The notes below the pieces were generated by a model. The model worked only from the letters and a program-made list of their open reading frames with translations, ran no database searches and was not told the origin of the DNA. From Candidatus Poribacteria bacterium (lineage in GTDB: Bacteria > Poribacteria > WGA-4E > JAJDTR01): DNA of 64,000 nt. Position numbers and translations under genes: made by a program. Numbering within the stretch: position 1 is the stretch's first letter; every line of letters begins with the position of its first letter. This document shows positions 12,270 through 61,724 of the stretch, piece by piece. The DNA lies in contig CBDCTK010000002.1 in assembly GCA_965222225.1 (NCBI GenBank), forward strand, positions 3,904,001 through 3,968,000, written 5' to 3'.

Positions 12270-12516
12270 TAGCTCGACTTTGTAAAAAAGTACAATTCTG
12301 AATTGCCATCTTGTAGGGTGCGATCAAAGGAATGAATAATGACTGCGATAGAGATTCCCTGCGCACCAGCCTCTAAAAGCCCCAGAGTGGGATCAAGGGA
12401 GCGAATAGTGAGTGCGATAGAAACCTGACAGGTATGTAGCAGCCAACAATGAAAACATGAAAAAACTTTCTCAAAATCTCAAAAATGGCTTTGCCACCGA
12501 TTCTTCAAACAGGTTC
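12270..12516 (+). repeat. MITE/REP composite carrying two micro-element insertions (12323-12358, 12392-12426)
   Basis: Aligns with uninterrupted copies at 53759-53983 and 61105-61311; right end TTCAAACAGGTTC. Confidence 0.75.
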
Positions 12517-12633
12517 TAAGAGATGATGGAAGAAACTGGTCTGCATGGGAACGAGCGAACTAGCAAACTACGCGCTCGGTCTGGATTTGCCAATCCAGAC
12601 CGAGCAGTGAGGGCGCGCACCGAAAAATTCGTC

Positions 12634-12852
12634 TCAGCGATTTCTGTTTTCGCGGAATGCCGCCACCATCCTCCGAACACGCCGTATCAGAATTGTAACA
12701 AGTACAACGAGCACGACAAATTGCAATACCCGAAGCAGGTTAAGTACCCCGCTGGGCATGTCAACCTCTCTTGATTGCGCCAACCAGATTGGAAGAAGCG
12801 CGACAGCCGACACGAGCAGTATCCAATTTTCCCAACGATCCCACGTTTTCAT
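12634..12852 (-). CDS. Small two-TM membrane protein
   Basis: 72 aa, two hydrophobic segments, GGAGG RBS, co-oriented after ahcY. Confidence 0.65.
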   Translation of the reverse strand: MKTWDRWENWILLVSAVALLPIWLAQSREVDMPSGVLNLLRVLQFVVLVVLVTILIRRVRRMVAAFRENRNR

Positions 12853-12908
12853 GAGAGCAAAACCTCCAAATCAATCTCTAGCTGCTAACGCTTAAACTCG
12901 CCATTGGA

Positions 12909-14171
12909 TCAGGTACCCATTGTCCAAGAACTCAGATAGGTATGTTGTTCTTCCGTAAGTTCGTCAATCTCAACACCAAGCGCATGAAGTTTCATCTCGG
13001 CAATCGATGTATCAATCCCTTCCGGAACAACATACACGCTTTTCTCCAGGCTTTCGTGGTTTTTTACGATATACTCAGCCGACAGAGCCTGATTCGCAAA
13101 ACTCATGTCCATGACACTCGCCGGGTGGCCCTCCGCCGAAGTGAGGTTAATGAGTCGTCCTTCGCCCAGAAGATGGAGTTTGCGCCCATCCCTCAACGTG
13201 TACTCTTCGACATATTTCCGCACAACCTTCTTTTCTACGCTTAGTTCCTCAAGATCGTCAATGTTGATTTCGACATTAAAGTGACCCGAATTGCAAATGA
13301 CTGCGCCATCCTTCATCACTTCAAAATGTTCGCGTCGAAGAACGTGTATGTCTCCCGTGATGGTCACTACAACGTCCGCCTCGGTCACGGCTTTGGTCAT
13401 CGGTAGAACGCGGAAACCGTCCATTACTGCCTCAAGCGCGTTAAGGGCATCGACTTCGGTGACGATGACATTTGCGCCCAAGCCGCGCGCTCTGTTGGCG
13501 AATCCTCGGCCGCACCAGCCATAGCCGGCTACGACAACCGTTGCACCCGCGATTAACAGATTCGTTGCGCGAATGATGCCGTCCAGCGTGCTCTGACCCG
13601 TACCGTACCGATTGTCGAATAAGTGCTTCGTTTTGGCGTCATTCACCGCGATGATGGGATACTTTAAGACGCCTTCGTTCGCCATGCTTTTCAGGCGAAT
13701 CACTCCCGTTGTTGTTTCCTCGGTCCCCGCAAACACATTTTCGACAAAGCCGGGGTTCATATCCTCGGCATGAAGTCGAGAGACAAGATCCGCGCCGTCG
13801 TCCATGGTGATCATCGGTCCCGAATTGATAGCGGCATCAATATGCTGATAGTAGGTTTCGGTGTCTTCGCCGTTGATGGCAAACACCGGTATTCCATCGT
13901 GCACGACCAGTGATGCCGCCACATCATCCTGCGTGCTCAATGGATTCGAGGCGCACAAAACCACCTCCGCTCCGCCCGCTTTCAGTGCTCGCATAAGGTT
14001 CGCGGTTTCCGTTGTAACGTGCAAACACGCCGCCACCCTTATCCCCTCCAGCGGACGGTCTTCCTCGAAACGCTCGCGAATCAGGCGGAGTACAGGCATA
14101 AAGCGATCCGCCCAGTCAATACGTCGTTTTCCTTCTGCTGCCAAGTTGCGACTCTTAATATCGCAGTCCAT
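12909..14171 (-). CDS. ahcY: Adenosylhomocysteinase
   Basis: [38 protein letters not shown]. Confidence 0.97.
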
Positions 14172-14181
14172 TTCTTCTCCT

Positions 14182-15330
14182 TCAAATTCCGGCTTCCGAT
14201 TTAAGCAAATCGGTGTAATCTGTTAATTCCCACGTAAAGCCTGGTTCATTCCGTCCAAAATGTCCGTAACTTGCCGTATTTTTGTAGATTGGCTTTCGCA
14301 AATCAAGTCGCTGGATGATTCCGTATGGTGTCAAATCGAACTGTTTCTGAACAAGGGTTGTAAGTTGCTCATCCTCAATTTTGCCCGTGCCGAAAGTCTC
14401 TACCATGATTGAAATGGGTTCTTCCACTCCAATGGCGTAGGAAACCTCCACTTCGCATCGATCCGCGAGTTCGGCGGCAACAATATTCTTTGCCACATGT
14501 CGAGCGGCGTAGCATGCGCTCCGGTCAACCTTTGTCGGATCTTTGCCGGAAAACGCTCCGCCGCCGTGCCTGCCCATCCCGCCATACGTATCGGCAATAA
14601 TCTTTCTCCCGGTTAAGCCCGAATCACCTTGCGGTCCTCCTACGACAAACCTGCCGGTCGGATTGATGTGATATTTGATGTCCGCACCTCGTAGATCGTC
14701 GGGAATGACACGTTTGATAATCTCTTCCACCACACCCTCTTTCAACACCCCGTCGGGCACGTCCGGATGGTGTTGGGTAGAGATGACCACTGTGCCCACA
14801 TTAACAGGTCTTCCATTTTGGTATTCGACCGTCACCTGAGATTTTCCGTCCGGGCGAAGAAATTCAAGTATACCTGCTTTCCGTGCTTCAGCGAGACGCC
14901 GCGTGAGTTTATGTGCCAGAGTAATGGGCATCGGCATCAATTCCGGCGTTTCGTTACACGCGTAGCCGAACATCATACCTTGATCGCCCGCGCCTCGGCG
15001 ATCGACCCCCATCGCAATATCGGGAGATTGTTCGTCAATCGCCGTCAATAATGCGCAGTGATCGCCGTCAAATCCATAGCTGGCATCAATATAGCCAATG
15101 TCTTTTATTACGTTCCGAGCAAGCGACGGATAATCCACATGATTGGCGTGCGTAGTAATCTCACCGGTGATAAGTGCAAGCCCGGTTGTCACGAGAGTCT
15201 CACAGGCGACGCGGCCCATCGGATCTTCCGACATAATTGCGTCGAGTACAGCATCGGAAATCTGATCCGCAACCTTATCCGGATGTCCTTCAGTTATGGA
15301 TTCTGAAGTAAACAAATAGTTTCGGCTCAA
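14182..15330 (-). CDS. metK: S-adenosylmethionine synthetase
   Basis: [35 protein letters not shown]. Confidence 0.98.
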
Positions 15331-15356
15331 TTCATGTCTCCTCGTGTATTATATTA

Positions 15357-15508
15357 ACCCAAGTTGCCACCTTTGTAGCACAATCTGTTAGATTGTGCTT
15401 GTGGTGCGCAAACTGTCAGTTTGCGCTACGGAATCTCGGCAATTAATGAACTATTCTCAATTAAAAACGGTGGTGCATGTCTAAAATCTTGTAAGTAGCA
15501 ACTTGGGC
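15357..15508. mobile_element. MITE family 2 (TIR CCCAAGTTGCYAC, flanked by TA)
   Basis: TA-ACCCAAGTTGCCAC...GTAGCAACTTGGGC-TA; near-identical partial copy at 61340-61474; split copy at 46101-46148 / 48548-48572. Confidence 0.7.
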
Positions 15509-15515
15509 TATTTAA

Positions 15516-15687
15516 GAGCCTGTTTGAAAAGTACATTTGTAGGGTGCGATCGACTGACTGATTAAGGAAGGCGATAGTAAATCTTGATAGAGATCCCGCA
15601 GGTACGTAGCAGACAACAATAACAACATGAAAAAACTTCCTACCAATGACCAAGAATGGCTTTGCTACCAATTATTCAATCAGGCTC
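15516..15687. mobile_element. MITE family 1 (TIR GAGCCTGTTTGAA, TAA duplication) containing a micro-element at 15549-15597
   Basis: TAA-GAGCCTGTTTGAA...TTCAATCAGGCTC-TAA. Confidence 0.75.
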
Positions 15688-16270: not shown

Positions 16271-16389
16271 GTGGAATCCAAGCTATGCCGCGCCCGCTTG
16301 GACGCGCCATAACGAAGGCGGGATCAATTTTGAAGAATGCGCAATGACAGATTTCTAGAATCCCTTGTCGTGCTGTTGCGGTTAGGGAG

Positions 16390-19956: not shown

Positions 19957-20010
19957 ATCAAACGAGTGGATAGCGAGTGCGATAGCTAATCCCGCGCGAT
20001 AGAAGATTCC
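19957..20010 (+). mobile_element. Micro-element plus an extra right end
   Basis: ATCAAACGAGTGGATAGCGAGTGCGATAGCTAATCCC-GCGCGATAGAAGATTCC. Confidence 0.85.
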
Positions 20011-21701: not shown

Positions 21702-21993
21702 TAACCCAAATTGCCACCCCTCTCGTAGGTCGGGATCAAGCGAGCAATCAAGCGACTGGATAAGGAGCGCGATAGAGTTCCCGACAGGTCGGTTGTGTCT
21801 CGCGTAGATGGTCCAAATTGATGCAGCCGCCTAGCTCTCGCTTTGTGATGTTTTCGATTGGGACGTAATCCAAGTGTCGCCCCTCTGGGGCTTTAGCGTG
21901 TGGCTAATCCACGTTTCTATACACCTGTCACCCCGCTGGGGCTTTGATGTCCGGATAATACATAAATACTTAGCGAATAAACTACTTAGGTTA
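21702..21993. repeat. MITE family 2-like composite with GCCCC..GGGGC palindromes and a micro-element nest (21735-21782)
   Basis: Left end TAACCCAAATTGCCAC; internal content similar to 42429-42721. Confidence 0.6.
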
Positions 21994-28377: not shown

Positions 28378-28644
28378 GAGCTTGTTTGAAAATTCATTTC
28401 GGGAAGAGCTTTTGCCCTGAAACCGATCAAATGAGCGAATAGCGAATGCGATAGAAATCCCTATTTTCTTGAAAACTCCGTTTCTTTCTTGCGCAAACCC
28501 GTAGGGTGCGCGCTGGGATCAAGGGAGCGAATAGTGAGTGCGATAGAAATCCTGACAGGTGTATAGCAGGCGACCACAAAAGCATGAAAAAGCCGCGCCC
28601 ACAGTGACCGAAATTGCTTTGCCACCTATTATTCAAACAGGCTC
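28378..28644. mobile_element. MITE family 1 (TCA duplication) with two micro-element insertions (28426-28461, 28518-28553)
   Basis: TCA-GAGCTTGTTTGAA...TTCAAACAGGCTC-TCA; otherwise nearly identical to 53759-53983. Confidence 0.85.
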
Positions 28645-28734: not shown

Positions 28735-28769
28735 ATCAAACGAATGGATAACGAGTGCGATAGAGATCC
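28735..28769 (+). mobile_element. Micro-element inside a GTAGGAGCG REP
   Basis: GTAGGAGCG[ATCAAACGAATGGATAACGAGTGCGATAGAGATCC]GTCTCTCGCTCGCGAC. Confidence 0.85.
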
Positions 28770-30359: not shown

Positions 30360-30438
30360 GTAGGGTGGGCACTGCCCACCGTCTTTTGTAGGGTGCACAC
30401 TGCGATCAAGGGAATTGAAATTGATTGCGATAGAGACT
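30360..30438 (+). repeat. GTAG REPs with a divergent micro-element at 30405
   Basis: GTAGGGTGCACACTGCG[ATCAAGGGAATTGAAATTGATTGCGATAGAGAC]. Confidence 0.7.
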
Positions 30439-32573: not shown

Positions 32574-32750
32574 ATCAACTGAGCGATCAAGCGACTGGAT
32601 AAGGATCAAACGAGTGGATAGCGAGTGATCAACTGACTGGATAAGGAAGGCGATAGTGAATCCTGATAGCTAATCCCGCGCGATAGAGTTCCTATAGCGA
32701 TGCGATAGCTAATCCCATAGTGAGTGCGATAGAAATCCCATAGAGATCTC
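32574..32750 (+). mobile_element. Four-deep nested micro-element array
   Basis: Left ends at 32574, 32586, 32605, 32628; six right ends. Confidence 0.88.
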
Positions 32751-32812: not shown

Positions 32813-35452
32813 TCAGAATTGATTCGCCACAAACACCAAATCAAACACATTAATGACCCCATCCCCATTCACGTCCCCCTTCAAACTATCCGTCCCGAAC
32901 CTCTGTGCCACCAGCGTCAAATCCAAAATATTCACCACCCCATCCCCGTACACATCCGCTGGGTTCTTCGGCTTCACCCGCAAATACATCTCCCCGTCAA
33001 GATTTGGTAACGCGTGCTGCGTGTTCACCCATCCGCTGGCGACACCCTGCACCTCCTCCGGCAACGTGTGACCTGTGGCGCCCCGCTGTGATTGTACACC
33101 GCCCAACCATTCGTGAATTCGCGAATGTAAAGCCCTTCTGTCTCTTGGTACAACTGACGTTTCGGACCGACGGGACGCCCAAGATCCGCGCCCCAGAAAT
33201 CGTACCAGTAATGGTGATGACCTCCGCCAGTTTGGAATAATACGTAACCGTCGGAGTGTGTGAGACTCAGCGTGGTAAACGTTCGCATCCAGCGGAGGTT
33301 CGTTGGACTATCAGGTGGTTCTGTAGGGACGCTCCAGCCCTCAAGACTGTTAATGTGCGGTTCTCTCAAGTTAGTTTCTAACCAGAACAGAGAACTTTCT
33401 ATTTCAGCGAGCAGCGCATCCAAATGATTTGCAGGCGCCTCACTCGGCACTAATGTTTCCATAAAGCTGCCGTTGAGATACTTACCGGTCTTGGGGATTT
33501 TGCGACGATTGGTGTTTCCAATGATGAGGAAGTTAGGCCTCGTTTCAGCGCGGATGCGTTCCAGTATGTTTATTTTCGCTTCGATTTCAGTTTCGTATCC
33601 AACATATTCGGTGCGCGGATTGCGGGTAACTAAAAGAGGTGAATTGTCGTTCCACCAGTCAATCATGATGCCATCGAACAAACCACATTTGGAGACGGCT
33701 ACGGCTTGGGCGACCATTCGATCCTGAAAGCCGGGGAGTGTAAAATTAATAAATGCGTCGCCTTCCCCAGCGCCAACCAGGTTGCCGGAGGCGTCGCGCA
33801 GCCAATACGGCCAGTCGGGGGGAAATTCATGAGGCGGTTCGGCGCGAAATGCAAGCTGTACAAGAAAGACCATATTGGGGTTGTGGGCGAGAAATGCGTC
33901 GCGATTTTCTATAGCCTAGCTAGGACCGTAGGGGGTAACCATTTGGATAGTGTCCGACGTTTCGCGGAAGTATGTCTCAAACCGCGGAACGCTAAACCAC
34001 AAATCGTGAGTTGCGAGGTTTTCAATATCTGATAATTCAGGTCGGTTCAAGGTGCGAATCCAACCTGGGCCGCCCCATGCAGCGAACAGTGATGGGAACG
34101 TTCTATTCTCCAATCGAGGTTGCAGTGGCACGGGCGGCAGGTCACAGGTCTGGTCGTAAAAGTAATGGGTAAGCGGGAGGTCGTCCAGCGGGCTGTGGTC
34201 TACAATTTGGTTCTGGTGGATTGCCAAGTGTTCGAGTCTTGTTAGTCCGGCGAGAGGTCGGACGTCGGAAATACGATTGCCGTGCACTTCCAGGTATTCT
34301 AACTGAGTCAACGCGGCGAGAGCGTTGATATCATGAATGTCATTGTATTCGAGATTGAGCCTTTGAAGTTTCGATAGGCGTGCTAGGGGGCGATGTTGAT
34401 AATCTCGCAGTCGGCTGCTTTAAGTGTGCTTAAATTTGTTAGATGCCCTATCGGTGTGATGTCGGAAAATGAATTGATGGATATGTTGAGCCATGTGAGA
34501 TTGATGGCGAATTCTAAACCGGTGAGATCTGTTATCTGACTATTTGCTGCAGCCAACCGTGTTAATTGCCGCATAAATGCGCGATTGACAAGGACGCCAT
34601 GGGGAGCTTGAGAGTTTCTCGGATAGCGGCTCTCAGGTTGGGGTCGGGGATATCGACGACCGGACTGTTCGCGTCGAATATGAGGTTGTTTTGAGTGTCA
34701 AGATATTCTAAATTTGTGAGATTTTCAAGTGGAGTAACATCCGTAATATCGTTATTGCCCAGCAGTAGTTTCGTTAACGCCGTAAGGTTGACGAGCGGGC
34801 TAACATCAACAATGCGGTTGTCCTTAACTTCTAACCATTCCAATTCAGTCAAATTCGCCAGTGGACTGACATCGGTAATCTGGTTTGAGTGCAATCGCAA
34901 CTTCTTTAGTTGACTAAAATTCGCCAGTGGTTTGATGTCTGTAATTGCGTTTCGTTGGAGATAAAGCCCGGTCAGTGCTGTTAGGTTTGCCAATGGACTG
35001 ATGTCGGAAATACGGCAATCCTGCGCAGCCAAGCCTCTCAATTTTGTAAGATTCGCCAGCGGACTAATGTCGGAGATTGGAGTCACTTGGATAAATAGTT
35101 CCTCCAGTGTCGTGAGTCCTGCTATCGGCGTAAGTTCAGTTATCGGGTTGCTCGGTATGTGAAGCCAAGTAAGGCTTACGGCGAATTCCAAACCGGTGAG
35201 GTCTGTTATCCCTCGGTTGGCGGCGTCTAAGCGTTGCAATCGCCTCATAAATGCAGTCGTAACGGGTGCGTCAGGACGGAGATTCAGCGCTTCTCGCACC
35301 GCGGCGCGCAGATTCGGGTCGGGCATGTGGACCGGATCTTCTATCGCATTCGCTATCTGCTCGCTTGATGGCTGGGCGTAAGTATCGGCGCAGAGTGCCG
35401 TCAATGCCAGTGCGATTATCGCGAATATAGTATAGGTCTTTCGTTTCTGCAT
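32813..35452 (-). pseudogene. LRR + putative glycoside-hydrolase-like (GHL15-like) + dockerin secreted protein, disrupted
   Basis: ORF pieces 34562-35512, 34383-34574, 33916-34311, 33025-33873 and 32813-33106 are colinear; frameshifts near 34602, 34388, 33068 and an in-frame TAG at 33916. The GHL15 call is from motif resemblance only. Confidence 0.8.
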
Positions 35453-35619: not shown

Positions 35620-35655
35620 ATCAACTGAGCGATTAGCGAAGGCGATAGAAATCCT
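35620..35655 (+). mobile_element. Single micro-element
   Basis: ATCAACTGAGCGATTAGCGAAGGCGATAGAAATCCT. Confidence 0.85.
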
Positions 35656-35670: not shown

Positions 35671-37575
35671 TTAAAACGCATTCGCCACAAACACCAAATC
35701 AAACACATTGACAACCCCATCCCCATTCACGTCTCCCTTCAAACTATCCGTTCCAAACCCCTGAGCCACCAGCGTCAAGTCCAAGATATTCACCACCCCG
35801 CCCCCGTTCACATCCGCCGGATTCTTCGGCTTTACCCGCAAATACATCTCCCCGTCAAGGTTCGGTAGTGCGTGCTCCGTGTTTACCAAACCGCTGGCGA
35901 CGCCCTGTACCTCCTCCGACAACGTGATGACCTGCGCCTACCCACTGTGATTGTAGACTGCCCAACCGTTGGTAAATTCGCGGATGTAAAGTCCTGGGAT
36001 CTCTATCGCACTCGCTATTCGCTCCCTAGATCGGTTCTCGTAGAGTTGACCTTTTTCTTCGCTGACCGGACGACCGAGGTCGGCATCCCAGAAATCGTAC
36101 CAGTAATGCTCGTGCTGAATGCCGTCGTTAAACAAGACGTAACCGTCGGAATGCGTGAGGCCGAATGCAGTGAAAGCGCGCATCCAGCGTAAATTCGCCG
36201 GGCTATCCGGCGGTCCCGTGGGAATACCCCATCCTTCCAAGCCGTTAATCTGCGGTTCTCTGAGGTTGGCTTCCAACCAGAGCAAAGCGCTCTCTATCTG
36301 GGCTAACCCCGCTTCTAGACGCTCTCCGGTTTTATCGTGCGGCACCCCCGTTTCCATAAACCCGCCGTTGATATGCTCGCCTGTCCTCGGTATTTTGCGG
36401 TCGTTGGTGTTGCCCATTATCAATGGGCCCGGACGAGCCTCGGCGCGGATGCGCTCAAGAATGTTGCTCCGAGCGCGTTGCTCGACAATCGTGGCGTCCT
36501 CATCTTCCGCCCAATGGTCAAAAAGAACGCCGTCGTACAAACCGCACCTTGACACGGCGAGCGCTCGGTTAATGATTATCTCCTAGGCGACGGGGTGTGT
36601 AAAATCGACTTTGTAAGCACCAGGCAGGGAAGATTGCGATCAGGCTTGCCGTCAGCGCCTTTTACCCAATAAGGCGAGTCCTCCGGCACGTTTTCGAGAT
36701 AATCTCTTTTCATTGGAATACTTACAATGAAAACCATATCCGGATTAATCGCTGTATACTCAGCACGCAGTTGCTCACCCCGTCCGGGAACGCCCCGTAC
36801 TTCCCACGTTTCGCCCGTGCAAAAAAAAACGCTGGTCAAATATTAGTGCCGATATATACAAATCGTGTTGAGCGTATTTCTCCACATTACTAAGATGCGG
36901 TTGATTGAGAGTCCCGGCCCATGCGGCAAACACTGAGGGATAATTTCTGCTTTTCAACCTGGATTCGAGTTCAAATGGAGGCGTATCACAGACCTGATCG
37001 TAGGTAAAACGGGTAAGCGACAGACCGTCAAGCGGAGAGCGATCCATAATAAAATTTCCCTCAATGGCGAGTTTCCGTAATCCGGTCAAACCGCGTAACG
37101 CTTCTACATCGGCTATTTGGTTGTCGCGAAGCAATAACAAGCGCAGAGAAGTTAATCCGACAAGCGGAGAAACATCTTTGATTGCGTTTCTGTCCAACCC
37201 CAACTCTTCCAAACTGTGAAGGTTGGCGAGCGGGGATATATCGGAAATGCTGTTTCTTGCCAAATCCAAGAGCCGTATATTGGGAGCATATTGCAACCCT
37301 TCAAGATTCTCAATCTCTCTACCGGGAGCGTCCAACCGCTCAAGTCGCCGCAAGGCAACGACCGTGATACGGTCGGGATTCGCTCCGCTCGCCTCGACGA
37401 CGACAGCCTTTAGATTTGGATCGGGAAAATGAACGACTTGGGCATGAACCCAAGAGGCAACCAGTAGAAAGGCAGTGACCAGTAGCCAGCGGCTAGTGGT
37501 CAGTAAAGACAAAGACGAGTTTCTGTTTTTCACTGACCACTGCTTTTTGGTGGTGGCTAAAACGCGATGTAACAT
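35671..37575 (-). pseudogene. Second LRR + GH-like + dockerin paralog, disrupted
   Basis: Pieces 36775-37575, 36576-36839, 35938-36555, 35671-35922; frameshift at the A9 run (~36821-36829) and near 36630; in-frame TAG at ~36583 and 35938. Confidence 0.8.
35996..36031 (-). mobile_element. Micro-element inserted in frame in a CDS
   Basis: Minus strand ATCTAGGGAGCGAATAGCGAGTGCGATAGAGATCCC, read as (R)SRERIASAIEIP. Confidence 0.88.
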
Positions 37576-39140: not shown

Positions 39141-40255
39141 GATTCGACGTAGCCCAATACCAACTGAGCCGTTCGTTCCGCCGCCCCGGAATCTCCAAGC
39201 TGCTCACGTACCCTGCAAAGAGCTTTGCGTTGTTCCTCTCGTTTTTCCGAATCTTGTAGTAGATCGAGTGCGATTGAGGTTATCCGCTCAACCTCTACAT
39301 CATCTTGCAAAAGTTCGGGAACGATTTGGCGCCCGGCGACAATATTCGGCAACGCGCTCGAATCGAGTTTAACGAATCGCTTTGCCGTCCACCAACTGAG
39401 CCGGGACAATTTGTAGAGAACGACCATCGGCGTCAGGAGGCATGCGGCTTCAAGCGTGGCTGTGCCCGACGCTACCAGTATTAGGTCGGACGCGCGCATG
39501 GCTTCGTACGTTGCATCTTTGACAATTTTGACCGTTGGCGCTTCGGGCAAGGTTTCTGGGGGGATGCTTGGTGCCAGTGGTAAAATCAACTGGCAATCGG
39601 GTAGGATTCGACGAATCTGTTCGGCGGCTTCCAACATCACGGGGTACAAGGCTTCCACCTCTCGCCGCCGACTGCCCGGCATCAAACCGAGAACAGGCGC
39701 ATTTGGTGCCAAGCCAAGTTTCTCACGGGCTTCGGCTATAGCGAGGTCCGAATTGGCGTAGTCCAATAATGGATGACCGACGAATTGTGCGTGCGCACCC
39801 GCACGCTGGTAGAAGTCCGTCTCAAAAGGAAAGATTGAGGCAACCGCGCTAGTTCTTTTCGCGATTTTCTTCGCGCGATACCCACGCCACGCCCACGCTT
39901 TCGGCGGGATGTAGTAGACGACCGGTATTTGCAGTCGATGCGCGCACGCAGCAAGCCCCATGTTAAATTCTGCGAAATCGACGAGCACGACCACGTCGGG
40001 GCGTTTCTTGCGAATGAGCCGTTTTAAGTGCCGCTGTTTTTTTAGGAACGCCGGAATCGCCGAAAGCACCTCTCCGATGCCCATCACCGCCGAATCGCGA
40101 ATGTGATAAACGAGTGAAACCCCTGCGGCTTCCATATGGTCGCCGCCCATTCCGAAGAGCTCGATCTCGGGACGGAGGGTTTTGAGTTGAGCTGCAACCT
40201 GAGATGCCTGCAAGTCGCCGGACGGCTCGCCGGCAACGATCAGAATCGCTGGCAT
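39137..40255 (-). CDS. lpxB: Lipid-A-disaccharide synthase
   Basis: VAGEPSGD, WAWR, VGHPL, MPGSR, SGTATLE. Confidence 0.95.
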   Translation of the reverse strand: MPAILIVAGEPSGDLQASQVAAQLKTLRPEIELFGMGGDHMEAAGVSLVYHIRDSAVMGIGEVLSAIPAFLKKQRHLKRLIRKKRPDVVVLVDFAEFNMGLAACAHRLQIPVVYYIPPKAWAWRGYRAKKIAKRTSAVASIFPFETDFYQRAGAHAQFVGHPLLDYANSDLAIAEAREKLGLAPNAPVLGLMPGSRRREVEALYPVMLEAAEQIRRILPDCQLILPLAPSIPPETLPEAPTVKIVKDATYEAMRASDLILVASGTATLEAACLLTPMVVLYKLSRLSWWTAKRFVKLDSSALPNIVAGRQIVPELLQDDVEVERITSIALDLLQDSEKREEQRKALCRVREQLGDSGAAERTAQLVLGYVES

Positions 40256-40281
40256 TGTTTCACACTCACATTTCGTTAGGG

Positions 40282-40450
40282 ATCAACCGAGCGGATAGCG
40301 AGGGCGATAGAGATCCCTCAAGCGACTGGATAACGATCAACTGAGTGGTTAACGAAGGATCAAAGGAGCGGATAGCGACTGCGATAGCCAATCCCATAGA
40401 AGATCCCGTGCGATACAGTTCCCTTCAACCGAGTGAATAAATCAAGGGAA
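40282..40450 (+). mobile_element. Micro-element array: tandem copy, three-deep nest and partial left ends
   Basis: Left ends at 40282, 40318, 40336, 40359, 40425. Confidence 0.88.
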
Positions 40451-40470
40451 TTCTTCAATGTGTATATCCG

Positions 40471-41514
40471 CTACGGCATCATACCCGGAATGCGTAACCC
40501 TGCGGTTTCGTCTAAGTCAAACATCACATTCAGGTTCTGCACAACCGCACTTGACGCGCCCTTGCCGAGGTTGTCAATCGCAGACAACACGACGACTCGA
40601 TTTGTGCGCACGTCGACTTCAAGTCCGATGTCACAGTAGTTGGTTCCGGCAACCGCTTTTGTCTGCGGGTACTCGTCCTGATCGAGAACACGCACAAATG
40701 GCTCTTTTTCATAGTATTTCGAATAAATCGCCAATAACGACTCAGTTGAAATATCGGCTTTGAGTTGGAAGTAGAGTGTGCTCAGAATTCCCCGCGTCAT
40801 CGGAACGATGTGGGGCGTAAAGATCACGCGGATAGTCTCGCCAGCGATCTTGCTCAACTCCTGCTCAATCTCCGGGGTGTGGCGATGCGTGCCGATGTTG
40901 TATGCGATAAAATTTGATTCTCGATTGGGAAAATGTGTTGTTGCGCTAGGGGTGCGTCCCGCGCCGGAGATTCCGGACTTCGAGTCGATTATGATGGAAC
41001 TCGGTTCAACCAAATCTCTGGCAAGCAGCGGCAGCGTGGGGAGAATGGCGCTTGTCGGATAGCACCCGGGATTTGCCACTAGCTCTGCCGTGCGAATCTC
41101 GCTTCGATAAAGTTCCGGCAAACCGTAAACTGCGCGCTCCATCCACTCGGGGTCCGAGTGCTCGACATGATACCATCCCTGATACGTTTCAGGATCGTCC
41201 AAACGGTAATCTGCACTGAAATCAACAACGCGAAGACCCTGTTTCAAAATCTCCGGTACGTACGACATGGCAACTTTGTGGGGGACGGCAAGAACAACCA
41301 CGTCCACCCGATCTCTGAGCGTCTCAATCTCCAACGGCTCGAAATCAAGGTCGATCAAACCGCGAAGGTTCGGCATTACCCGGTCTACCCGCTGGCCAGG
41401 ATACGTTTCCGACGTCACCATCTCGATTTTCAATTCGCCCGGGTGACTGATCAGGAAACGCAACAATTCGCTGCTCGTATAACCTGACGCCCCCACAATG
41501 CCAACCTTTACCAT
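40471..41514 (-). CDS. argC: N-acetyl-gamma-glutamyl-phosphate reductase
   Basis: GASGY, VANPGCYPT, HRHTPEI, IDNLGKGA. Confidence 0.96.
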   Translation of the reverse strand: MVKVGIVGASGYTSSELLRFLISHPGELKIEMVTSETYPGQRVDRVMPNLRGLIDLDFEPLEIETLRDRVDVVVLAVPHKVAMSYVPEILKQGLRVVDFSADYRLDDPETYQGWYHVEHSDPEWMERAVYGLPELYRSEIRTAELVANPGCYPTSAILPTLPLLARDLVEPSSIIIDSKSGISGAGRTPSATTHFPNRESNFIAYNIGTHRHTPEIEQELSKIAGETIRVIFTPHIVPMTRGILSTLYFQLKADISTESLLAIYSKYYEKEPFVRVLDQDEYPQTKAVAGTNYCDIGLEVDVRTNRVVVLSAIDNLGKGASSAVVQNLNVMFDLDETAGLRIPGMMP

Positions 41515-41677
41515 TGAGATTCGCGCTCCTCGTCATGCTGCGCCTAATTTTAGAATATCAGTGAGACTAAACCCTCCGTGACCGATGAAAAATTGTAGCA
41601 TTCAGAACGACGGATGTCAAGAACCAACGTCAAGCGCCAACGATTCGATTCCGCTTCAAATCCCCTGATTGTGCTCA

Positions 41678-41845
41678 ATAGAGATCCCATAGAACTCCCT
41701 TCAACCAAGACGTAGGAGGGATCAAGCGAATGGATAATGAGTGCGATAGTAAATCCCACACGACAGAGATCCCCTCAAGCGGGTGAATAACGAGTAGGAT
41801 GAACTATCGCCTTCACTATTCGTTCAGTTGATCGATAGAAATCTT
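41678..41845. mobile_element. Micro-element array with one copy nested in inverted orientation (41796-41832)
   Basis: Full + copy at 41721-41757; minus copy ATCAACTGAACGAATAGTGAAGGCGATAGTTCATCCT. Confidence 0.85.
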
Positions 41846-41914
41846 CTTGCCCCGACTCCGTTGCACCTCTTGGCGCCAGGGCTTTACCAACCGCTAACTT
41901 CTACCACCAAACAC

Positions 41915-42256
41915 TTACGCAAAATGTATCCAATGCCCATCAGGATCTTGAAAACTCAGACTCGGACCGCGCCGCGTGAGGGGAATATTCCTTTGGCGAA
42001 GCGTTTCAAGCGCCTCTTCTTCCGCTCCATCAGGCAGATTGAGCGCAAGATGATGCACACCCGCGCCAATTTGCGCCGGATCGGATGCTTGGAACAATGC
42101 CAACACTTCTCCGTTTGCCAAACGCAAGAAGATGCGATTCTCTGAAGCACTTCCCTCTTCCAGTCCCAAATGAGCGATATACCAATCGGCAGACTTTCGT
42201 ACATCGCTCACCCAGACAGCGACGTGATTGAACCCTTGCACCTTTATACTTGCCAT
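41915..42256 (-). CDS. VOC/glyoxalase family protein
   Basis: FNHVAVWV, HHLAL, FQDPDGHWI. Confidence 0.88.
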   Translation of the reverse strand: MASIKVQGFNHVAVWVSDVRKSADWYIAHLGLEEGSASENRIFLRLANGEVLALFQASDPAQIGAGVHHLALNLPDGAEEEALETLRQRNIPLTRRGPSLSFQDPDGHWIHFA

Positions 42257-42428
42257 TGTCTATTGCCTCCTTTCTTCCAGACAAATCGGATTTTATCATA
42301 TTTTGAGCCACGCCGCTAGATGTACTTGGGATACAGACAGGGGAAATGCATCTAAAATCTATCGAATCGTCCTCACGCTGTAAATAACCACGATGGTTGT
42401 TTTTAACTTCCTATGTTTTCCGCCCTAC

Positions 42429-42721
42429 AGCCCCAGAGGGGATCGAGCGAGCGAATAGCAAGTGCGATAGAGATCCCGACAGGGCTGGTTGTGTCTCGGA
42501 TGTATCGTCCGAATTAAAGACGAATTTTCGATTATAGGCGGATTTGGGCGAATCGAAATTTAACCGAGAATGCTACAACCGCCACCGAGCTAGCCACTTT
42601 CCGATTTTTTCTAGTTGCTACCTAAGTGTCGCCCCTCTGGGGCTTTAGCGTGCTTACGATTGGCGTTGCTATACACCTTCCGGGATTTCTATCGCACTCG
42701 TTTGATCCCGCGCTGGGGCTT
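42429..42721. repeat. Repeat with GCCCC..GGGGC palindromes carrying micro-elements at 42442-42477 (+) and 42682-42706 (-, short form)
   Basis: CCCCAGAGGGG[36 bp]GACAGG; minus strand GGG[ATCAAACGAGTGCGATAGAAATCCC]GGAAGG. Confidence 0.75.
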
Positions 42722-43076
42722 CCGATGTGTGACGAATCGGTGTTGCTATCACTTTGAGAATCTCATCTTCAATTTGATGATGGTCTATCTCCTAGATTCA
42801 GATGCGTTTTCCCTTGGGATACAGACAGGGCAATCACACCTGATTCAGGAGATTTCTTCGTCCGCGATGAACACGGTTGCCAAATCTCCACAATTCTTTG
42901 AATGGTGCGACGGCATAAAGTTTCCCATATAACCAAAACCGGCTGTCAATAACCCTCGCCACGTCACGCACACGAAAAGGGTTGAATCGATTACGGCCGT
43001 GTGTTATGCTCTTAGAGGTACGAGTTGCCTTTACCTACGGCTCAACTGCTTAATGGCGAGAGATTGGTGGAATTGT

Positions 43077-46148: not shown

Positions 46149-46221
46149 ATCAAGCGAATGGCTAATGAGTGCGATAGTAAATCCTGATAGCAAGTCTTGA
46201 TAGCGATCCCATAGAAATCTT
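46149..46221 (+). mobile_element. Micro-element array at the left border of the putative cargo
   Basis: One left end and four right ends; 52 of 55 nt identical to 48476-48530. Confidence 0.85.
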
Positions 46222-46525
46222 CTCCCGATCGCGACCTCCTGTCACGAGCAAACTCGTTCCTACAGTAGGTTTGTCGTAACTGTCATCAAATCGCCCACCC
46301 CCATCCTTTTCATTTCGCGTCCAACTAGTCGTTCACTTGCGCGTAGACCGCAATATGTGTAAATGTGAATGCAAATGACTATAGATGCGTTCCTCCCGAT
46401 TCCCCTACCCTCAACGGTTGACACCATTGAAGAGCTGTGTTATTTTAGGAGACATGATTCGCAAACAATCCGAGCCATAGAAATCCGCGTCCGTAAGTGG
46501 CGACAATCCGGCGACGAATGAGAAC

Positions 46526-48452: not shown

Positions 48453-48547
48453 ATCAACTGAATGGACAGTGGAGGATCAAGCGAATGGCTAATGAGTGCA
48501 ATTGTAAATCCTGATAGAAAGTCTTGATAGAACTCCCATAGAATCCC
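48453..48547 (+). mobile_element. Micro-element array at the right border of the putative cargo
   Basis: ATCAACTGAATGGACAGTGGAGG[ATCAAGCGAATGGCTAATGAG...]. Confidence 0.85.
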
Positions 48548-50838: not shown

Positions 50839-50954
50839 GAGATTTCTATCAGGATCTGCTATCGGGATTAGCTATCGCGGTCGCTATCCGCTCCCTTGAT
50901 CTCCTTATACAGTCGCTTGATCACAGTAGATCGCTCGTTGTCCACTCGTTTGAT
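50839..50954 (-). mobile_element. Nested micro-element array on the minus strand
   Basis: Four left ends and three right ends; innermost copy ATCAAGGGAGCGGATAGCGACCGCGATAGCTAATCCC. Confidence 0.85.
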
Positions 50955-57956: not shown

Positions 57957-57968
57957 TTGTGGTAGATT

Positions 57969-58082
57969 TCAAGCGATCCAGGGAATGGATAATGACCGCG
58001 ATAGAACTCCCATAGAAATCCCGTGCGATAGAGATCCTAGGGCGATAGTAAATCCCTACAGAGATCCCCTCAACCGAGCGGC
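57969..58082 (+). mobile_element. Micro-element array
   Basis: Full copy ATCCAGGGAATGGATAATGACCGCGATAGAACTCCC at 57976, four more right ends, partial left ends. Confidence 0.82.
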
Positions 58083-58169
58083 ACGTTTCAGGATATCCCA
58101 ATCCATAGACCCTACTTTCACCCCCGATTCAAAATAGATGAATCGGTCAACTCAAAATTAGGCACGTTA

Positions 58170-58780
58170 ATGCACAATCGAATAGCGGCTGCAACTTCGG
58201 TTCTCTTCAACCCACTTCTCACGCCAATTGCGACAACTCTAATGATTGCTCTAGTGATTGCCGAAAACTACGCTGCAACCACACGCGTGATGCTGTTGTG
58301 GATGGGGATTGCTTTCACTTTTTTTCCTTATTGCCGGTCTTTTTTATCTTTATCCTCTTTCGCCTAGGGAGGGTGAGTAACCTCAACCTTGAGGTCAAAG
58401 AGCAACGCACGTTACCGTTACTCTTTGTCATAGGAGCGGCATGCATCGGGCTAGGCATTTTTTACGTAATCGGCGCCCCGCGCGAGATAATTTGGGCGGG
58501 GATCGCCTATATCGCAAACGGAGTCATCTTCGGCGCCATTACACAAGTCTGGAAAATCAGCTTCCACACCGGGGTCTTTACCGGTTGTGTCACTGTGCTT
58601 GTGCTGATTCTTCATGATGCGAGGTTTGCGTGGCTGTTTCTCTTGGTGCCACTCATTGCATGGGCGCGAGTTCGACGGAAGAGACATACGCTCGTTCAAA
58701 CGGTTGTTGGCGCACTCATTGCGCTTATCAACACCGTCGTTGTTCTTCGATTGTGTGTTGAAATCGGTTTGGGATCTTAA
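58170..58780 (+). pseudogene. PAP2-like multi-TM membrane protein, frameshift in a T7 run (58319-58325)
   Basis: Two overlapping hydrophobic ORFs; WKISFH, WARV...HTLVQ motifs. Confidence 0.7.
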
Positions 58781-58855
58781 GGGCGGGAATGACAGGGCTA
58801 GTGTCGCGGCAATTGGGCAGGAACTGATCGCCAGAACATCGAAACTCGGTTTCCC

Positions 58856-59707
58856 TCATCTCAGCGGTGGAAGATTATCCCACTCGCAGTCGAGGCAGAA
58901 GTATCTTCCCACGCCTATTTTTTGAATCGGTCCCCCACATTTCGGACATTCCGTCTGTTTCTCCTTCTCCTTCTCCTTTTTCACTTCGTCTGGTGAGAAC
59001 ATTAGAAGTTGCTCGCCTTCCATGGCGCGTTCGGATTCTGCGGCAACACTGCTCTCAAGTGTGTCAATGATATCTTGAGCGTGAAGATTGAGCGGAGGCG
59101 GCGTGTTCGTGACCAAATCGATGAAATCGCTGCGATACACATTAATCGCACGCGACTCAACTGCCTGCCGCATAAAGAGCGTATATTTGTTCGGGGCAAT
59201 CAAGTAGGCTTCCGTATCTTGAAGTTGTGTCTTGCGGCTCACGACAAGTTCATAGTCACCGTATGTCAGGCAGTTTCCAGCGCTCGCGTTATAGATTTCA
59301 AACACTTCACGAGAACGATTCGGGGACATGAGAAGGCAGTATAGACGTTGAGGATATCGATTGAGGCGGTTCATCGGCAGAAAAATGTCGGGCTGAGCGA
59401 TGCGCTGTAAGAACCCGATAAACGCTTCATAGGCAAACTCCATTGCTTCATTCAATACTTCAGTGTCCAAACTCGCGCTCGACCTGTCCGCAAACAGAGG
59501 AAGAAACTCTCGCGAGTGCGCGTGGATGTCAACGTCGACATCAACGTTCTGTTGCTCGCTGCGCGCCGTAATTCGGCACAGGCGCTCGACCGGGTGATGA
59601 GTAACTTTTATGGTGAATGGCAGCATGGAGTTACTGATAAGACTAATAGAAGAATGGCTGGAAAATTTCGGTGATGCTTTCCTTAAGCTAATGCGATAGT
59701 GTATCAT
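58856..59707 (-). CDS. Hypothetical protein with a C-terminal zinc ribbon
   Basis: CPKC...CLDC; start may be 59626. Confidence 0.7.
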   Translation of the reverse strand: MIHYRISLRKASPKFSSHSSISLISNSMLPFTIKVTHHPVERLCRITARSEQQNVDVDVDIHAHSREFLPLFADRSSASLDTEVLNEAMEFAYEAFIGFLQRIAQPDIFLPMNRLNRYPQRLYCLLMSPNRSREVFEIYNASAGNCLTYGDYELVVSRKTQLQDTEAYLIAPNKYTLFMRQAVESRAINVYRSDFIDLVTNTPPPLNLHAQDIIDTLESSVAAESERAMEGEQLLMFSPDEVKKEKEKEKQTECPKCGGPIQKIGVGRYFCLDCEWDNLPPLR

Positions 59708-59884
59708 AGCGTGTCCAGCGTGTCCAGAAAAACCCTATCTCGCATCAGGATAACTGTGCGGCGTGGTCGGGACAGATTGTCCTTGACACTGTTGTCCGGT
59801 CAAACTATAATGCCTACCCAATAATGAAACTCACGGTTATTGACCCGCTTTGATGGAGTCGATAACCGACGGAGGGATTGAAAC

Positions 59885-61099
59885 ATGCCGAAAACGGCTT
59901 GCTTGGTAGGGACATTGGATACGAAGGGTCCGGAATTTGAGTTTCTTAAGGAGCGCGTAGAGGCGAATAACGTCGCAACATTCGTCATCAACACAGGGGT
60001 TCTGGGAGATCCGTATTTTGAACCGAGTGTGTCCGCCGAGCAAGTGGCAGAGGCGGGTGGGACATCGCTGACCACACTCAGGAACGAGAGTGATCGGGGC
60101 AATAGCGTCGCCGCAATGGCGAACGGAGCCGCTCAAATTGTCGAGCGACTCAACGACGATGGAGTAATTGATGGTATCATTTCGCTCGGCGGATCCGCCG
60201 GAACAACCATCGGGACGACCGCAATGCGCGCGCTGTCCGTCGGCGTTCCGAAGTTGATGGTCTCTACGTTAGCCTCCGGCGACACTAGTCCCTATGTGGA
60301 CACGAAAGACATCGCGATGATGTATTCCGTCGTGGACATCGCGGGCGTCAATCGTCTCTCGCGCCAAATTCTGACGAACGCCGCGGGGGCGATTGCCGGT
60401 ATGATCAACGCAGTGGTGCCCGTAGCCGATGATAAACCCTTAATCGCCGCGACAATGTTTGGGGTGACAACGGCATGTGTGACCAAGGCACGCGAGATTC
60501 TTGAGGCGGCTGGGTATGAAGTTCTTGTTTTCCATGCAACGGGCACCGGCGGACGGGCAATGGAAGATTTGGTCCGGGGCGGATTTATCGTGGGCGTGCT
60601 TGATGTCACAACGACCGAGCTTGCCGATGAGTTGGTTGGCGGGGTGTTGAGCGCGGGACAGGACCGCCTTGAAGCCGCGGGGAATCAGGGAATTCCGCAG
60701 GTTATCGCCCCGGGAGCGTTAGATATGGTGAATTTCGGTCCCCCCGATACCGTGCCCGAGAAGTTTAAGGACAGGAAGTTTTACCAACACAACCCGACAA
60801 TCACCCTCATGCGCACCACCGTGGATGAGAACGCCGAGCTAGGGAAAATCATGGCGCAAAAACTTGGTCGGGCAAAGGGACCGACAACCGTGATAATACC
60901 CAAGCGGGGAGTCTCCGCAATCGACGCTCAAGGACAGCCCTTCGATTCGCCGGAAGCCAGGGCGGCGTGGACTCAGAACTTGAAGGCGAACGTGGCGGAC
61001 AATGTCACGGTGATTGAAATGGACAACAACATAAACGATGACGCCTTCGCCACACGACTTGCCGAAACATTGTTGCAAAACTTAAAGCACCAGAGTTGA
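59885..61099 (+). CDS. Tm-1-like ATP-binding protein (UPF0261)
   Basis: GTLDTKG, LGGSAGT, TMFGVTT, FHATGTGG, PGALDMVNFG. Confidence 0.92.
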   Translation: MPKTACLVGTLDTKGPEFEFLKERVEANNVATFVINTGVLGDPYFEPSVSAEQVAEAGGTSLTTLRNESDRGNSVAAMANGAAQIVERLNDDGVIDGIISLGGSAGTTIGTTAMRALSVGVPKLMVSTLASGDTSPYVDTKDIAMMYSVVDIAGVNRLSRQILTNAAGAIAGMINAVVPVADDKPLIAATMFGVTTACVTKAREILEAAGYEVLVFHATGTGGRAMEDLVRGGFIVGVLDVTTTELADELVGGVLSAGQDRLEAAGNQGIPQVIAPGALDMVNFGPPDTVPEKFKDRKFYQHNPTITLMRTTVDENAELGKIMAQKLGRAKGPTTVIIPKRGVSAIDAQGQPFDSPEARAAWTQNLKANVADNVTVIEMDNNINDDAFATRLAETLLQNLKHQS

Positions 61100-61104
61100 G
61101 TTCT

Positions 61105-61474
61105 TAGCTCGACTTTGTACATTTGTAGGGTGGGCACCGTCCACCATTTCTTGTAGGGTGCGCACTGCGCACCAGCCTTTGTGAGCCCAAGCGGGGCGGA
61201 AGGTGTGTAGAAACGGCGATTCACTACTCATCATAAGCCCCAGAGGGGCGACAGGTAGCAACAACTCAAATACCCAAGAATCGCTTTGTTACCTCTTTTT
61301 CAAACAGGGTCTTAAGAAACCTTCGTGGTGTACTATCTAACCCGAGTTGCCACCTTTGTAGCACAATCTGTTAGATTGTGCTTGTGATGCGCAAACTGAC
61401 AGTTTGCGCCACGAAATCTCCGCAATTAATGAACTGTTCTCAATTAAAAACGGTGATGCATGTCTAAAATCTTG
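61105..61474. repeat. Adjacent uninterrupted MITE/REP composites (family 1-like at 61105-61311; family 2 at 61340-61474)
   Basis: Match 12270-12516 and 15357-15490. Confidence 0.7.
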
Positions 61475-61613
61475 GGCCCTTCAGAGTTAAATGTGGAAAT
61501 GAAATTAACTTAGGGCTTACGCAGTGACGCATCCAAAGGATTGTAGGAGCGATCTCCGAATCGCGACCTCCTATCGCGAGCAAAACTCGCTCCTACACAA
61601 GACGCGCAATAAA

Positions 61614-61724
61614 GGGAATTCTATCGATCAACCGACTGGATAAGGAGGGATCAAGCGTATGAATAATGAGTGCGATAGAACTCCGATAGTAAATCCCGTA
61701 CGATAGAGTTCCGGTAAAAATCCT
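61614..61724 (+). mobile_element. Micro-element nest inserted into an inverted right end
   Basis: GGGAATTCTATCG, then left ends at 61627 and 61650, then four right ends. Confidence 0.82.

Follow-up and report, generated by a model that had tools for sequence, protein, structure and literature searches.

A small self-nesting hairpin repeat with strand-specific covariation, probably a miniature mobile element, in Poribacteria

Several families of short repeats that fold as single strands have been described in bacteria, and they provide the background for the repeat examined here, a 34-37-nt unit beginning with ATCAA (the ATCAA element) in the genome of a Candidatus Poribacteria bacterium. The hallmark of repetitive extragenic palindromic (REP) sequences of the REP/REPIN-RAYT system (RAYT, REP-associated tyrosine transposase) is a GTAG or GTGG tetranucleotide located 5' of the palindrome. 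The SDR1-8 repeats of Nostocaceae, attributed to Elhai et al. 2008, reportedly range in size from 21-27 nt. SDR5 measures 21 nt and is inserted between bases 3 and 4 of GCGATCGC, i.e. after GCG, and SDR elements are reported from Nostocaceae only; for the IS200/IS605 insertion sequences (IS), the rule is that the active strand prefers the lagging-strand template. In the current study, we analysed a 64-kb stretch of DNA (the window; G000:C2:3904001-3968000) of genome G000 (5.70 Mb, 2 contigs, 50% G+C). The ATCAA element contains a genuine conserved hairpin, with strong strand-specific covariation, on a very small element that is inserted in other repeats and in itself. It appears to belong with the small mobile hairpin repeats and to be among the smallest bacterial mobile elements; we consider it probable that it is a miniature non-autonomous mobile element recognised by its shape as a single strand.

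The core of the element, numbered 1-27, reads ATCAA-v1-GA-v2-GRATA-v3-GA-v4-GCGAT, where v1 to v4 are variable dinucleotides, and matches to the pattern ATCAANNGANNGRATANNGANNGCGAT with at most 2 mismatches were counted. The window contains 24 such matches against a mean expectation of 0.01, and none of 100 dinucleotide-preserving shuffles reached 24. Genome-wide, 1052 core copies were found in G000 (538 exact, 351 with 1 mismatch and 163 with 2; 580 on the plus and 472 on the minus strand), comprising 597 distinct 27-mers, and the commonest 11-mers of the genome are k-mers of the element. Conservation extends beyond the core to a G at -1 (944/1052), A28 (1004/1052) and G29 (1002/1052), and the tail 3' of the core ends in TCC around +34 to +36; the full unit of 34-37 nt thus consists of the 27-nt core and a tail of the form AG-N(2-4)-ATCC(C). 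A preliminary description of the window had listed copies of the core and reported their covariation. Both were confirmed, and a pattern search of the window returned an element copy at every coordinate listed, but the length given was too short, as the conserved G at -1 and the tail had been omitted; in addition, two entries listed as copies, 40336 and 61627, are really truncated 23-nt heads of hosts that hold a nested copy. A literature search (supplements aside) returned no description of these repeats in Poribacteria.

Pairing of v1 with v4 and of v2 with v3 was assessed across all copies in G000. Watson-Crick partners were present at pair 6-22 in 732/1052 copies (70% vs 30% expected from column make-up; mutual information 0.76 bit), at pair 7-21 in 949/1052 (90% vs 39%; 0.97 bit), at pair 10-18 in 967/1052 (92% vs 35%; 1.14 bit) and at pair 11-17 in 867/1052 (82% vs 48%; 0.42 bit). 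The remaining pairs among the 11 variable core columns reached at most 0.13 bit. When 77 columns including the flanks were considered, the sole other value above 0.25 bit was 0.43, between tail positions 33/34, which we read as an effect of length variation. An alignment of 150 distinct copies (A1; 24 from the window and 126 from loci in other Poribacteria genomes) was also examined. Standard pairs occupied 95.1% of its cells vs 77.5% in shuffled alignments, and the covariation score was 0.570 vs 0.207, with 0/500 shuffles as high in either case; changes on both sides were found in 201 cells vs 40 in shuffles. As a control, the 3' partners were slid by 1-3 columns, upon which paired cells fell to 14.8-47.4%. 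Moreover, RNAalifold, supplied with no structure, predicted exactly pairs 6-22, 7-21, 10-18 and 11-17. The closing ATC/GAT pairs are almost invariant and are therefore uninformative on pairing. These combined data bear out the hairpin with four covarying pairs that had been proposed from the window, and the genome-wide mutual-information check confines covariation to those four pairs. An outer stem, GGGATC/GATCCC, formed by the 5' flank and the tail and used in the DNA fold of one copy, was also considered and rejected: no flank-tail pair was among the top 40 by mutual information (each above 0.15 bit), and the tail keeps CCC with C and G equally frequent at -2.

In the fold proposed for the ATCAA strand there are three Watson-Crick steps of 2-3 bp, with A4A5 opposite G23C24, tandem G8A9 opposite G19A20, and a G-RAT-A loop between. 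The non-Watson-Crick opposites are near-invariant, occurring in 986 (G8/A20), 1014 (A9/G19), 979 (A4/C24), 973 (A5/G23) and 1016 (G12/A16) of the 1052 copies. The GA steps lie in the context 5'-Y-GA-R-3' in 75-79% of copies (pyrimidine at position 7 in 820 and at 18 in 792, purine at 10 in 785 and at 21 in 828, per 1052). In DNA, tandem G.A mismatches take the sheared form in such a context, and the G.A pairs of the element may have that geometry.

The claim that the ATCAA strand is the one that folds was likewise upheld. On that strand in G000, 472 of 4208 cells are G.T or T.G vs 79 that are A.C or C.A; the corresponding counts were 64 vs 12 in a 0.8-Mb sample of a second genome (G002) and 256 vs 41 in other loci of the same genus (g1). 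The wobbles are tolerated at two pairs, 6-22 (255 G.T) and 11-17 (146 T.G), among the 1052 copies. Nearest-neighbour energies were computed for a set of 170 exact cores, all distinct. Under RNA parameters, the mean for the proposed fold was -2.85 kcal/mol on the sense strand and +2.18 kcal/mol on the antisense strand, and the four pairs were part of the minimum-energy fold in 107/170 and 30/170 cores, respectively. The excess of G.T over A.C and the RNA energies together indicate that the ATCAA strand folds. Pairing is thus selected, but the free hairpin is marginal in the energy models, which fits a protein-stabilised or protein-read fold.

It had further been suggested that propagation selects on shape and that many different copies act as donors, and the composition of the G000 copies supports this. 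Among distinct 27-mers, 71/72 of the variants present at least 3 times were fully paired, as were 43/46 of those present twice and 311/479 of the singletons (Fisher p = 3e-11 for variants with at least 3 copies vs singletons). Fully paired copies made up 566/642 of those with no mismatch at the 17 invariant positions, 231/297 with 1 and 77/113 with 2; since pairing falls as mismatches at invariant positions accumulate, decay hits both kinds of position together. Altogether, 87 fully paired four-pair haplotypes were found, 86/192 combinations of the common pair states occur, and the two stems show almost no mutual dependence (at most 0.13 bit between them). A caveat to the many-donor reading is that passenger amplification in composite repeats also multiplies variants.

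Insertion was examined at the junctions of the element with its hosts. The base before the G at -1 is C or G in 908/1052 copies, and the 5' junction at host insertions lies after [C/G]G, a target of only 2 nt. Two REP families of G000 serve as hosts. The GTAGG-type family, TTGTAGGGTG[C/G]GCAC[T/C]GC[G/C]CACCAGCC, consists of a GTAG box and an 8-bp palindrome; its motif has 362 hits in G000, it occurs in the window at 12310-12322 with 12359-12372 and at ~30360-30404, and it is often split by the ATCAA element. This REP (GTAGGGTGCGCACTGCGCACCAGC) is interrupted at two sites, after GGTGCG or CACTGCG, with 46 filled copies listed; the commonest continuations of the motif are uninterrupted ones, CACTGCGC (65) and CACTGCCC (48), and in two filled copies the host sequence is intact after ...ATC. 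The CCCC-type family, AAAGCCCCAG[A/C]GGGGCGACAGGTG (in the window, 12373-12391 with 12427-12445), has one insertion site in G000, after GGGG, between AGCCCCAGMGGGG and CGACAGGT, with 48 empty and 53 filled copies. No flank duplication was seen in the junction listings of either type of host.

The element is also inserted into itself. Removal of 34-36 nt restored a complete host in 142/1052 copies. Most of the insertion points follow host G23; others follow G12, G19/A20 or the G at -1. The window contains two nested stacks (32574-32716 and 40318-40395). Inverted self-insertions lie at the G23/C24 step, at which the insertion point follows CG on the opposite strand too, e.g. at 41797-41832. We considered a 25-nt unit (ATCAA...GCG) inserted in a separate GATAG...ATCC target and discarded it: removal of 34-36 nt restores hosts, and the shorter solutions are stacked heads that share one tail. 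Genome-wide, ~800 tail-only modules of the form (G)ATAG-N(2-4)-ATCC(C) were counted beyond a reversed-sequence control, in tandem and without matching heads (in the window, 40396-40425, 46185-46225 and 58012-58060, for example); they could be nested-host remainders or excision footprints at an internal site between GCG and AT.

Empty sites were sought in other sequences. Two public runs yielded contigs in which 28426 is followed directly by 28462 with 35 nt skipped, an empty form of that flank; because the flanks are short, these contigs may be paralogues. In the orthologous intergenic regions of sister species, the copy is mostly missing or the sequence wholly different, and orthologous empty sites between species were abandoned as a source of base-level junctions, the intergenic DNA being too diverged. 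At an identity of at least 93%, the single block difference found was a ~700-nt composite. This block, which is present in a sister species (L031 6470-7164) and absent at G000:C2:1887100, consists of two tandem ~390-nt composites with ATCAA elements and REPs, and has TTGATAG at both borders.

With a crude gene caller (4223 genes, 80% coding), 1019/1052 copies were located between called genes and 32 inside genes. Copies occur in every one of the 23 250-kb bins, at roughly one copy per 5 kb of chromosome, and intergenic regions are enlarged by the element relative to sister species. In all four public runs examined, assembly contigs end at element copies. Neighbouring copies no more than 400 nt apart comprise 270 direct and 92 inverted cases; among them no REPIN-like fixed spacing was seen, the sole inverted peak lying at 32 nt (12 cases), which we read as inverted nested insertions. 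In 20-kb windows with elements masked, the ATCAA strand of G000 is found preferentially on whichever strand has the negative local GC skew (odds ratio 0.26): the plus/minus copy numbers are 196/303 in positive-skew windows and 384/157 in negative-skew windows. This bias was found in 98 windows vs 40, in both gene-orientation classes and in 7/7 one-in-seven subsamples, and 0/271 circular shifts were as extreme. The GC skew of contig C2 flips sign many times along its length.

When compared with the REP/REPIN-RAYT system, the ATCAA element shares the features of short extragenic imperfect palindromes present in hundreds of lineage-specific copies, single-strand hairpins, and Y1/RAYT genes in the hosts, and classical REPs of the GTAGG and CCCC types coexist with it in G000. 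However, its positions -4 to -1 are A/T, G, C/G and G, with no GTAG or GTGG (GTAG precedes the GTAGG-type REP instead), it has neither a consistently flanked Y1/RAYT gene nor inverted doublets at fixed spacing, its stem consists of 2-bp steps between conserved non-Watson-Crick blocks, and it inserts into REPs. Thus, of four REP features, it has the extragenic many-copy palindrome and lacks the GTAG box, the flanked RAYT gene and the REPIN doublets. The resemblance to SDR1-8 comprises very small dispersed units, a compensatory hairpin, self-nesting, and precise insertion in other short repeats; the SDR5 site lies after GCG, and the Poribacteria unit follows [C/G]G and starts with AT. The differences are the poribacterial host, a unit of 34-37 nt vs 21-27 nt, and a tail outside the hairpin. 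The GCGAT/ATC ends, which recall HIP1 (GCGATCGC) and SDR5, had prompted us to consider a cyanobacterial origin. HIP1 occurs only 120 times in the 5.7 Mb of G000, which is therefore not a HIP1-rich cyanobacterium, and its relatives are Poribacteria; this origin was rejected.

Like IS200/IS605 elements and palindrome-associated transposable elements (PATEs), the ATCAA element appears to insert 3' of a short specific sequence without duplication and has strand-specific hairpins, and its right end lies 8-9 nt past the hairpin foot, a distance similar to that of the IS608 right end from its own hairpin foot. Unlike them, it consists of one hairpin and not of a left end plus a right end, its target is a dinucleotide, its 3' junction is irregular, and no autonomous copy carrying tnpA was found; furthermore, its strand bias in G000 runs counter to the preference for the lagging-strand template, and is unseen in the congeners G002 and G005. 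With integron attC sites it shares single-strand hairpins of variable sequence whose shape is conserved together with a few unpaired bases, which in attC are read by the recombinase. It is, however, much shorter and is dispersed over the whole chromosome and not in cassette arrays (intI itself was not searched for).

The distribution of the element was surveyed in 176 genomes of the phylum representing 31 genera, with up to 1 mismatch allowed. It is abundant in only 2/31 genera, namely g1, which includes G000 (10/10 genomes, 610-1314 copies), and g4, a genus in a different family (4/4 genomes, 209-220 copies). Among the other 162 genomes, one of genus g6 has 19 copies, eight have 1-5, and 153 have none. 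In g4 loci, 28/34 copies were fully paired and 13/26 distinct cores were identical to 27-mers of G000; the tail differs by genus (AGAGATC in g1, AGTCTT or AGTTTT in g4), with the hairpin conserved. This contrast of tail and hairpin, the patchy distribution, the location between genes and the even density over intergenic classes count as marks of a selfish element. A scan of one genome per species returned at least 102 stretches, and among the matches listed 79/80 were from Candidatus Poribacteria bacterium and 1 from an uncultured Clostridium sp. A scan of viral contigs gave 0 matches to the element, and BLAST against plasmids and phages gave only chance-level hits inside genes (E 0.1-0.5). 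The Clostridium-labelled metagenome-assembled genome (MAG; G176, 1.5 Mb) contains four copies of a ~150-nt AT-rich composite flanked by inverted repeats (L020 3540-3700, L236 300-440, L239 and L240 ~1440-1580). At the centre of each is the same hairpin (v1/v4 AC/GT, AT/AT, AT/AT and GT/GG), after which comes another, different hairpin (GCAATCTACA...TGTAGATTGC); the composite was found in none of 60 relatives examined.

In the mechanism that we favour, a trans-acting protein would read the invariant non-Watson-Crick features, and the four intervening pairs would therefore need only to pair, such that any copy keeping the shape could serve as donor. The protein would place the unit 3' of a [C/G]G dinucleotide without target duplication. 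The most plausible enzyme class would be a single-strand-specific HUH/Y1 nuclease of the IS200/IS605-RAYT kind, several of which are encoded in these genomes. In this scheme the single-stranded intermediate and its DNA or RNA nature, the G.A geometry and the enzyme are all putative. If the scheme holds, a 27-nt fold would suffice for ~1000 copies per genome, inheritance would consist of shape plus ~17 fixed bases and not of sequence, the 597 variants in one genome would amount to a natural mutational scan of the enzyme's needs, and oligonucleotides would allow a direct test of how the smallest bacterial repeats spread. In sponge-symbiont genomics, much of the intergenic DNA is taken up by the element and its partner repeats; for REP biology, it is a small repeat parasitising REPs of another system.

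A number of observations weigh against mobility as a single strand. The 3' junction is irregular, usually with 1-2 host bases changed or missing. The empty sites are paralogous (other repeat copies or short metagenome contigs) and not proven orthologous alleles, and larger composite repeats that amplified with the unit as a passenger account for part of the copy number. Under DNA parameters, the mean for the sense fold was +1.87 kcal/mol and the four pairs were in the minimum-energy fold of only 4/170 cores, and six window copies folded as DNA no better than shuffles (z -0.29 to +1.30); because the models may under-rate tandem G.A in DNA, the active strand may be either DNA or RNA. The skew bias runs in a direction which we take to be opposite to that of IS608-type elements, and in 40 x 20-kb samples it was not replicated in G002 (odds ratio 1.0) or G005 (0.66, p = 0.3). 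Strong as it is in G000, the bias is therefore not used as support for a replication-coupled, single-stranded DNA mechanism. Further points concern the enzyme. A 157-aa IS200-like Y1 protein was rejected as mobiliser, since its cognate repeat is the CCCC-type REP and its distribution is mismatched. None of the three intact RAYT-like genes of G000 has a flanking pair of copies, and two further RAYT classes adjoin copies in some genomes only. Lastly, 81 genes (products unannotated) have a copy less than 200 nt away on either side, and no family among them had the flanking pattern of an autonomous version.

Matches to Y1_Tnp (PF01797) were found in 34/41 related genomes, and presence alone is therefore uninformative. 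G000 has 7 Y1-like open reading frames (ORFs), at none of which an autonomous tnpA-carrying element was found. The intact 157-aa Y1 gene (G000:C2:3080258-3080728) scores 65.8 bit on NCBIfam NF033573 and falls below the cut-off of the REP-transposase model. Inverted CCCC-type REPs flank this gene in all genomes examined (g1, g4, g6 and g3) in a REPtron-like arrangement, and the ATCAA copies beside it are inserts within those REPs. Its homologues in g6 and g3, genera without the abundant element, are 70-77% identical, and no such gene turned up in two g4 genomes with the element. As for the RAYT-like genes, orthologues in G001, G003, G006, G008 and G009 had no copy in flanks of ~1.3 kb or more on each side. 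Decayed RAYT-like genes lie beside ATCAA copies at C2:3560268-3560543 (a C-terminal fragment) and C2:3088937-3089347 (with an in-frame TAG), and copies are mostly not found beside their intact relatives. The first of these, G000:C2:3560268-3560543, is tightly flanked by inverted copies and was dismissed as a candidate, its full-length orthologues in five genomes being without such flanks. Another candidate was an IS whose terminal inverted repeat is TAGGAGTTACGCAGTTG and whose DDE-type transposase ORF encodes 339 aa, present in ~24 copies in G000 (e.g. G000:C2:3886612-3887665). It is 86% identical to a g4 copy (L074 5848-6914) vs 66-77% for other g4 loci, which suggests exchange of mobile DNA between g1 and g4, but its ends are unrelated to the ATCAA element and it was rejected as mobiliser. 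In G176, none of the three Y1 genes adjoins an element copy. An HUH/Y1 enzyme acting in trans is our most economical guess, with none tied to the element.

A more speculative version, to which we give rather little weight, is that the hairpin is a shape-coded address (tandem G.A, the A.C/A.G step and the G-RAT-A loop) read by a new structure-specific enzyme or by a host replication or repair activity, and not by a flanking RAYT. If so, few known mobile DNAs would be as small as the 34-37-nt unit, which would also be the first such outside cyanobacteria, and the address would be shared across phyla, the four copies of G176 having wholly different flanks and compensatory changes. A precise 5' junction with an irregular 3' junction would fit a single-strand copy that is joined to a nascent strand, followed by imprecise re-priming.

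We next weighed explanations other than mobility as a single strand. It is conceivable, although we think it unlikely, that the hairpin acts as RNA, either as a functional stem-loop bound by a protein (tandem G.A plus a GNRA-like pentaloop) or as the intermediate of an RNA-mediated copy-and-paste process, which is said to have been suggested for the cyanobacterial SDR elements. The energies agree with this, since RNA parameters favour the sense fold and DNA parameters do not, as does the tolerance of G.U-type wobbles at pairs 6-22 and 11-17. In co-directional intergenic regions there is also a slight sense bias (398 copies vs 322), yet this leaves 322/720 copies antisense to both neighbouring genes, and copy density is similar in tandem, divergent and convergent intergenic DNA (1.00 per kb for ++, 0.81 for --, 0.75 divergent and 0.97 convergent). 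Contigs from RNA libraries reach into copies, which is a weak point in favour; they are strandless and may reflect DNA carry-over, and were set aside as evidence of transcription because they cannot show transcription, strand or ends. Rfam 15 gave 0 matches in the window at the gathering threshold, and 0 at E up to 1 in 40000-43000. Moreover, nesting breaks the host hairpin, which would be intolerable for a functional RNA site.

We regard as still more doubtful that the copies are structural or regulatory sites selected by the host (bound by a nucleoid or transcription factor, say, or stabilising mRNA ends) and kept by selection at each locus, not by transposition. The intergenic location of 1019/1052 copies would agree with such a role, as would the conservation of the core across two families, with half of the g4 27-mers examined (13/26) identical to those of G000, and the position of copies 12392, 15549 and 28518 in conserved leaders just upstream of paralogous short ORFs. 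Yet copies sit in each other and in other repeats and destroy these hosts, they have no preference for promoter-side or terminator-side intergenic DNA, the orthologous regions of sister species mostly have no copy or are wholly different, and beyond g1 and g4 the 162 genomes of the phylum hold at most 19 copies each, with none in 153. An origin of the covariation without any constraint on structure, in which it would only reflect a few subfamilies each passed on as a block, can be practically discounted: some haplotypes are over-represented (e.g. AT/GC/AT/TA, 65 copies vs 4.5 expected) and related sequences can beat column shuffles without structure, but the stems vary almost independently over 87 fully paired haplotypes, the slid-partner controls lose pairing with relatedness kept, G.T exceeds A.C six-fold on one strand, singletons are paired less often than multi-copy variants, and the same pairing recurs in g4 and in the Clostridium-labelled MAG with different flanks.

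The copies found in the window are listed in Table 1.

Table 1. ATCAA element copies and fragments in the window (positions of the 64-kb stretch; v1/v4 and v2/v3, paired dinucleotides)
Feature	Position	Strand	v1/v4	v2/v3	Remarks
Full core, atypical tail	5957-5992	-	GC/GC	CC/GG	core 5966-5992; outside the range of the preliminary description
Full copy	12323-12358	+	AG/CT	AT/AT	inside GTAGG-type REP, between GTAGGGTGCG and CTGCGCACCAGCC
Full copy	12392-12426	+	GG/GT	GC/GT	in CCCC-type REP, between AGCCCCAGAGTGGG and GACAGGT; tail AGAAACC; end 12426 read by eye (script end 12420)
Copy, 2 core mismatches	15549-15584	+	CT/AG	CT/AG	GTAGGGTGCG precedes
Full copy	19957-19993	+	AC/GT	GT/GC	
Full copy	21747-21782	+	GC/GC	CT/AG	truncated head ATCAAGCGAGCA precedes
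Full copy	28426-28461	+	AT/AT	GC/GC	empty form of flank in public contigs
Full copy	28518-28552	+	GG/GT	GC/GT	followed by TGACAGGTG, rest of CCCC-type REP
Full copy	28735-28769	+	AC/GT	AT/AC	
Degenerate copy	30405-30431	+			2 mismatches, altered loop; after GTAGGGTGCACACTGCG
Three stacked truncated heads	32574-32627	+			1-12 at 32574-32585, 1-19 at 32586-32604, 1-23 at 32605-32627; by eye
Innermost full copy of nested series	32628-32663	+	CT/AG	CT/AG	
Stacked remainders (3' parts, tails) of three hosts	32664-32716	+			reverse order of heads; by eye
Copy, 1 mismatch	35334-35369	-	GC/AT	GC/GC	
Copy, 1 mismatch	35620-35654	+	CT/AG	GC/GC	
Copy, 1 mismatch	35996-36031	-	GG/GT	GC/GC	
Full copy	40282-40317	+	CC/GG	GC/GC	
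Two truncated heads	40318-40358	+	CT/AG (40336-40358)		2-19 at 40318-40335, 1-23 at 40336-40358; hosts of 40359 copy; by eye
Full copy	40359-40395	+	AG/CT	GC/GC	solo tails ATAGAAGATCCC, GCGATACAGTTCCC follow
Full copy	41721-41757	+	GC/GT	AT/AT	
Full copy	41797-41832	-	CT/AG	AC/GT	inverted insert between positions 23/24 of decayed plus-strand host
Copy, 2 mismatches	42442-42477	+	GC/GT	GC/GC	
Copy, 1 mismatch	46149-46184	+	GC/GT	AT/AT	three tail-only modules follow
Copy, 2 mismatches	48476-48511	+	GC/GT	AT/AT	tail TGTAAATCC; end by eye
Full copy	50864-50900	-	GG/CC	GC/GC	
Copy, 1 mismatch	57976-58011	+	GG/CC	AT/AT	several tail modules follow
Truncated head, positions 1-23	61627-61649	+	CC/GG	CT/AG	host of 61650 copy; by eye
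Copy, 1 mismatch	61650-61684	+	GC/GT	AT/AT	

Several of these copies are followed by a conserved leader, GACAGGT[A/G]TGTAGCAG..CAACAAT...ATGAAAAAAC, at 12427-12500, 15585-15650 and 28553-28620. The leader is a repeated unit and runs into short ORFs starting with MKK.

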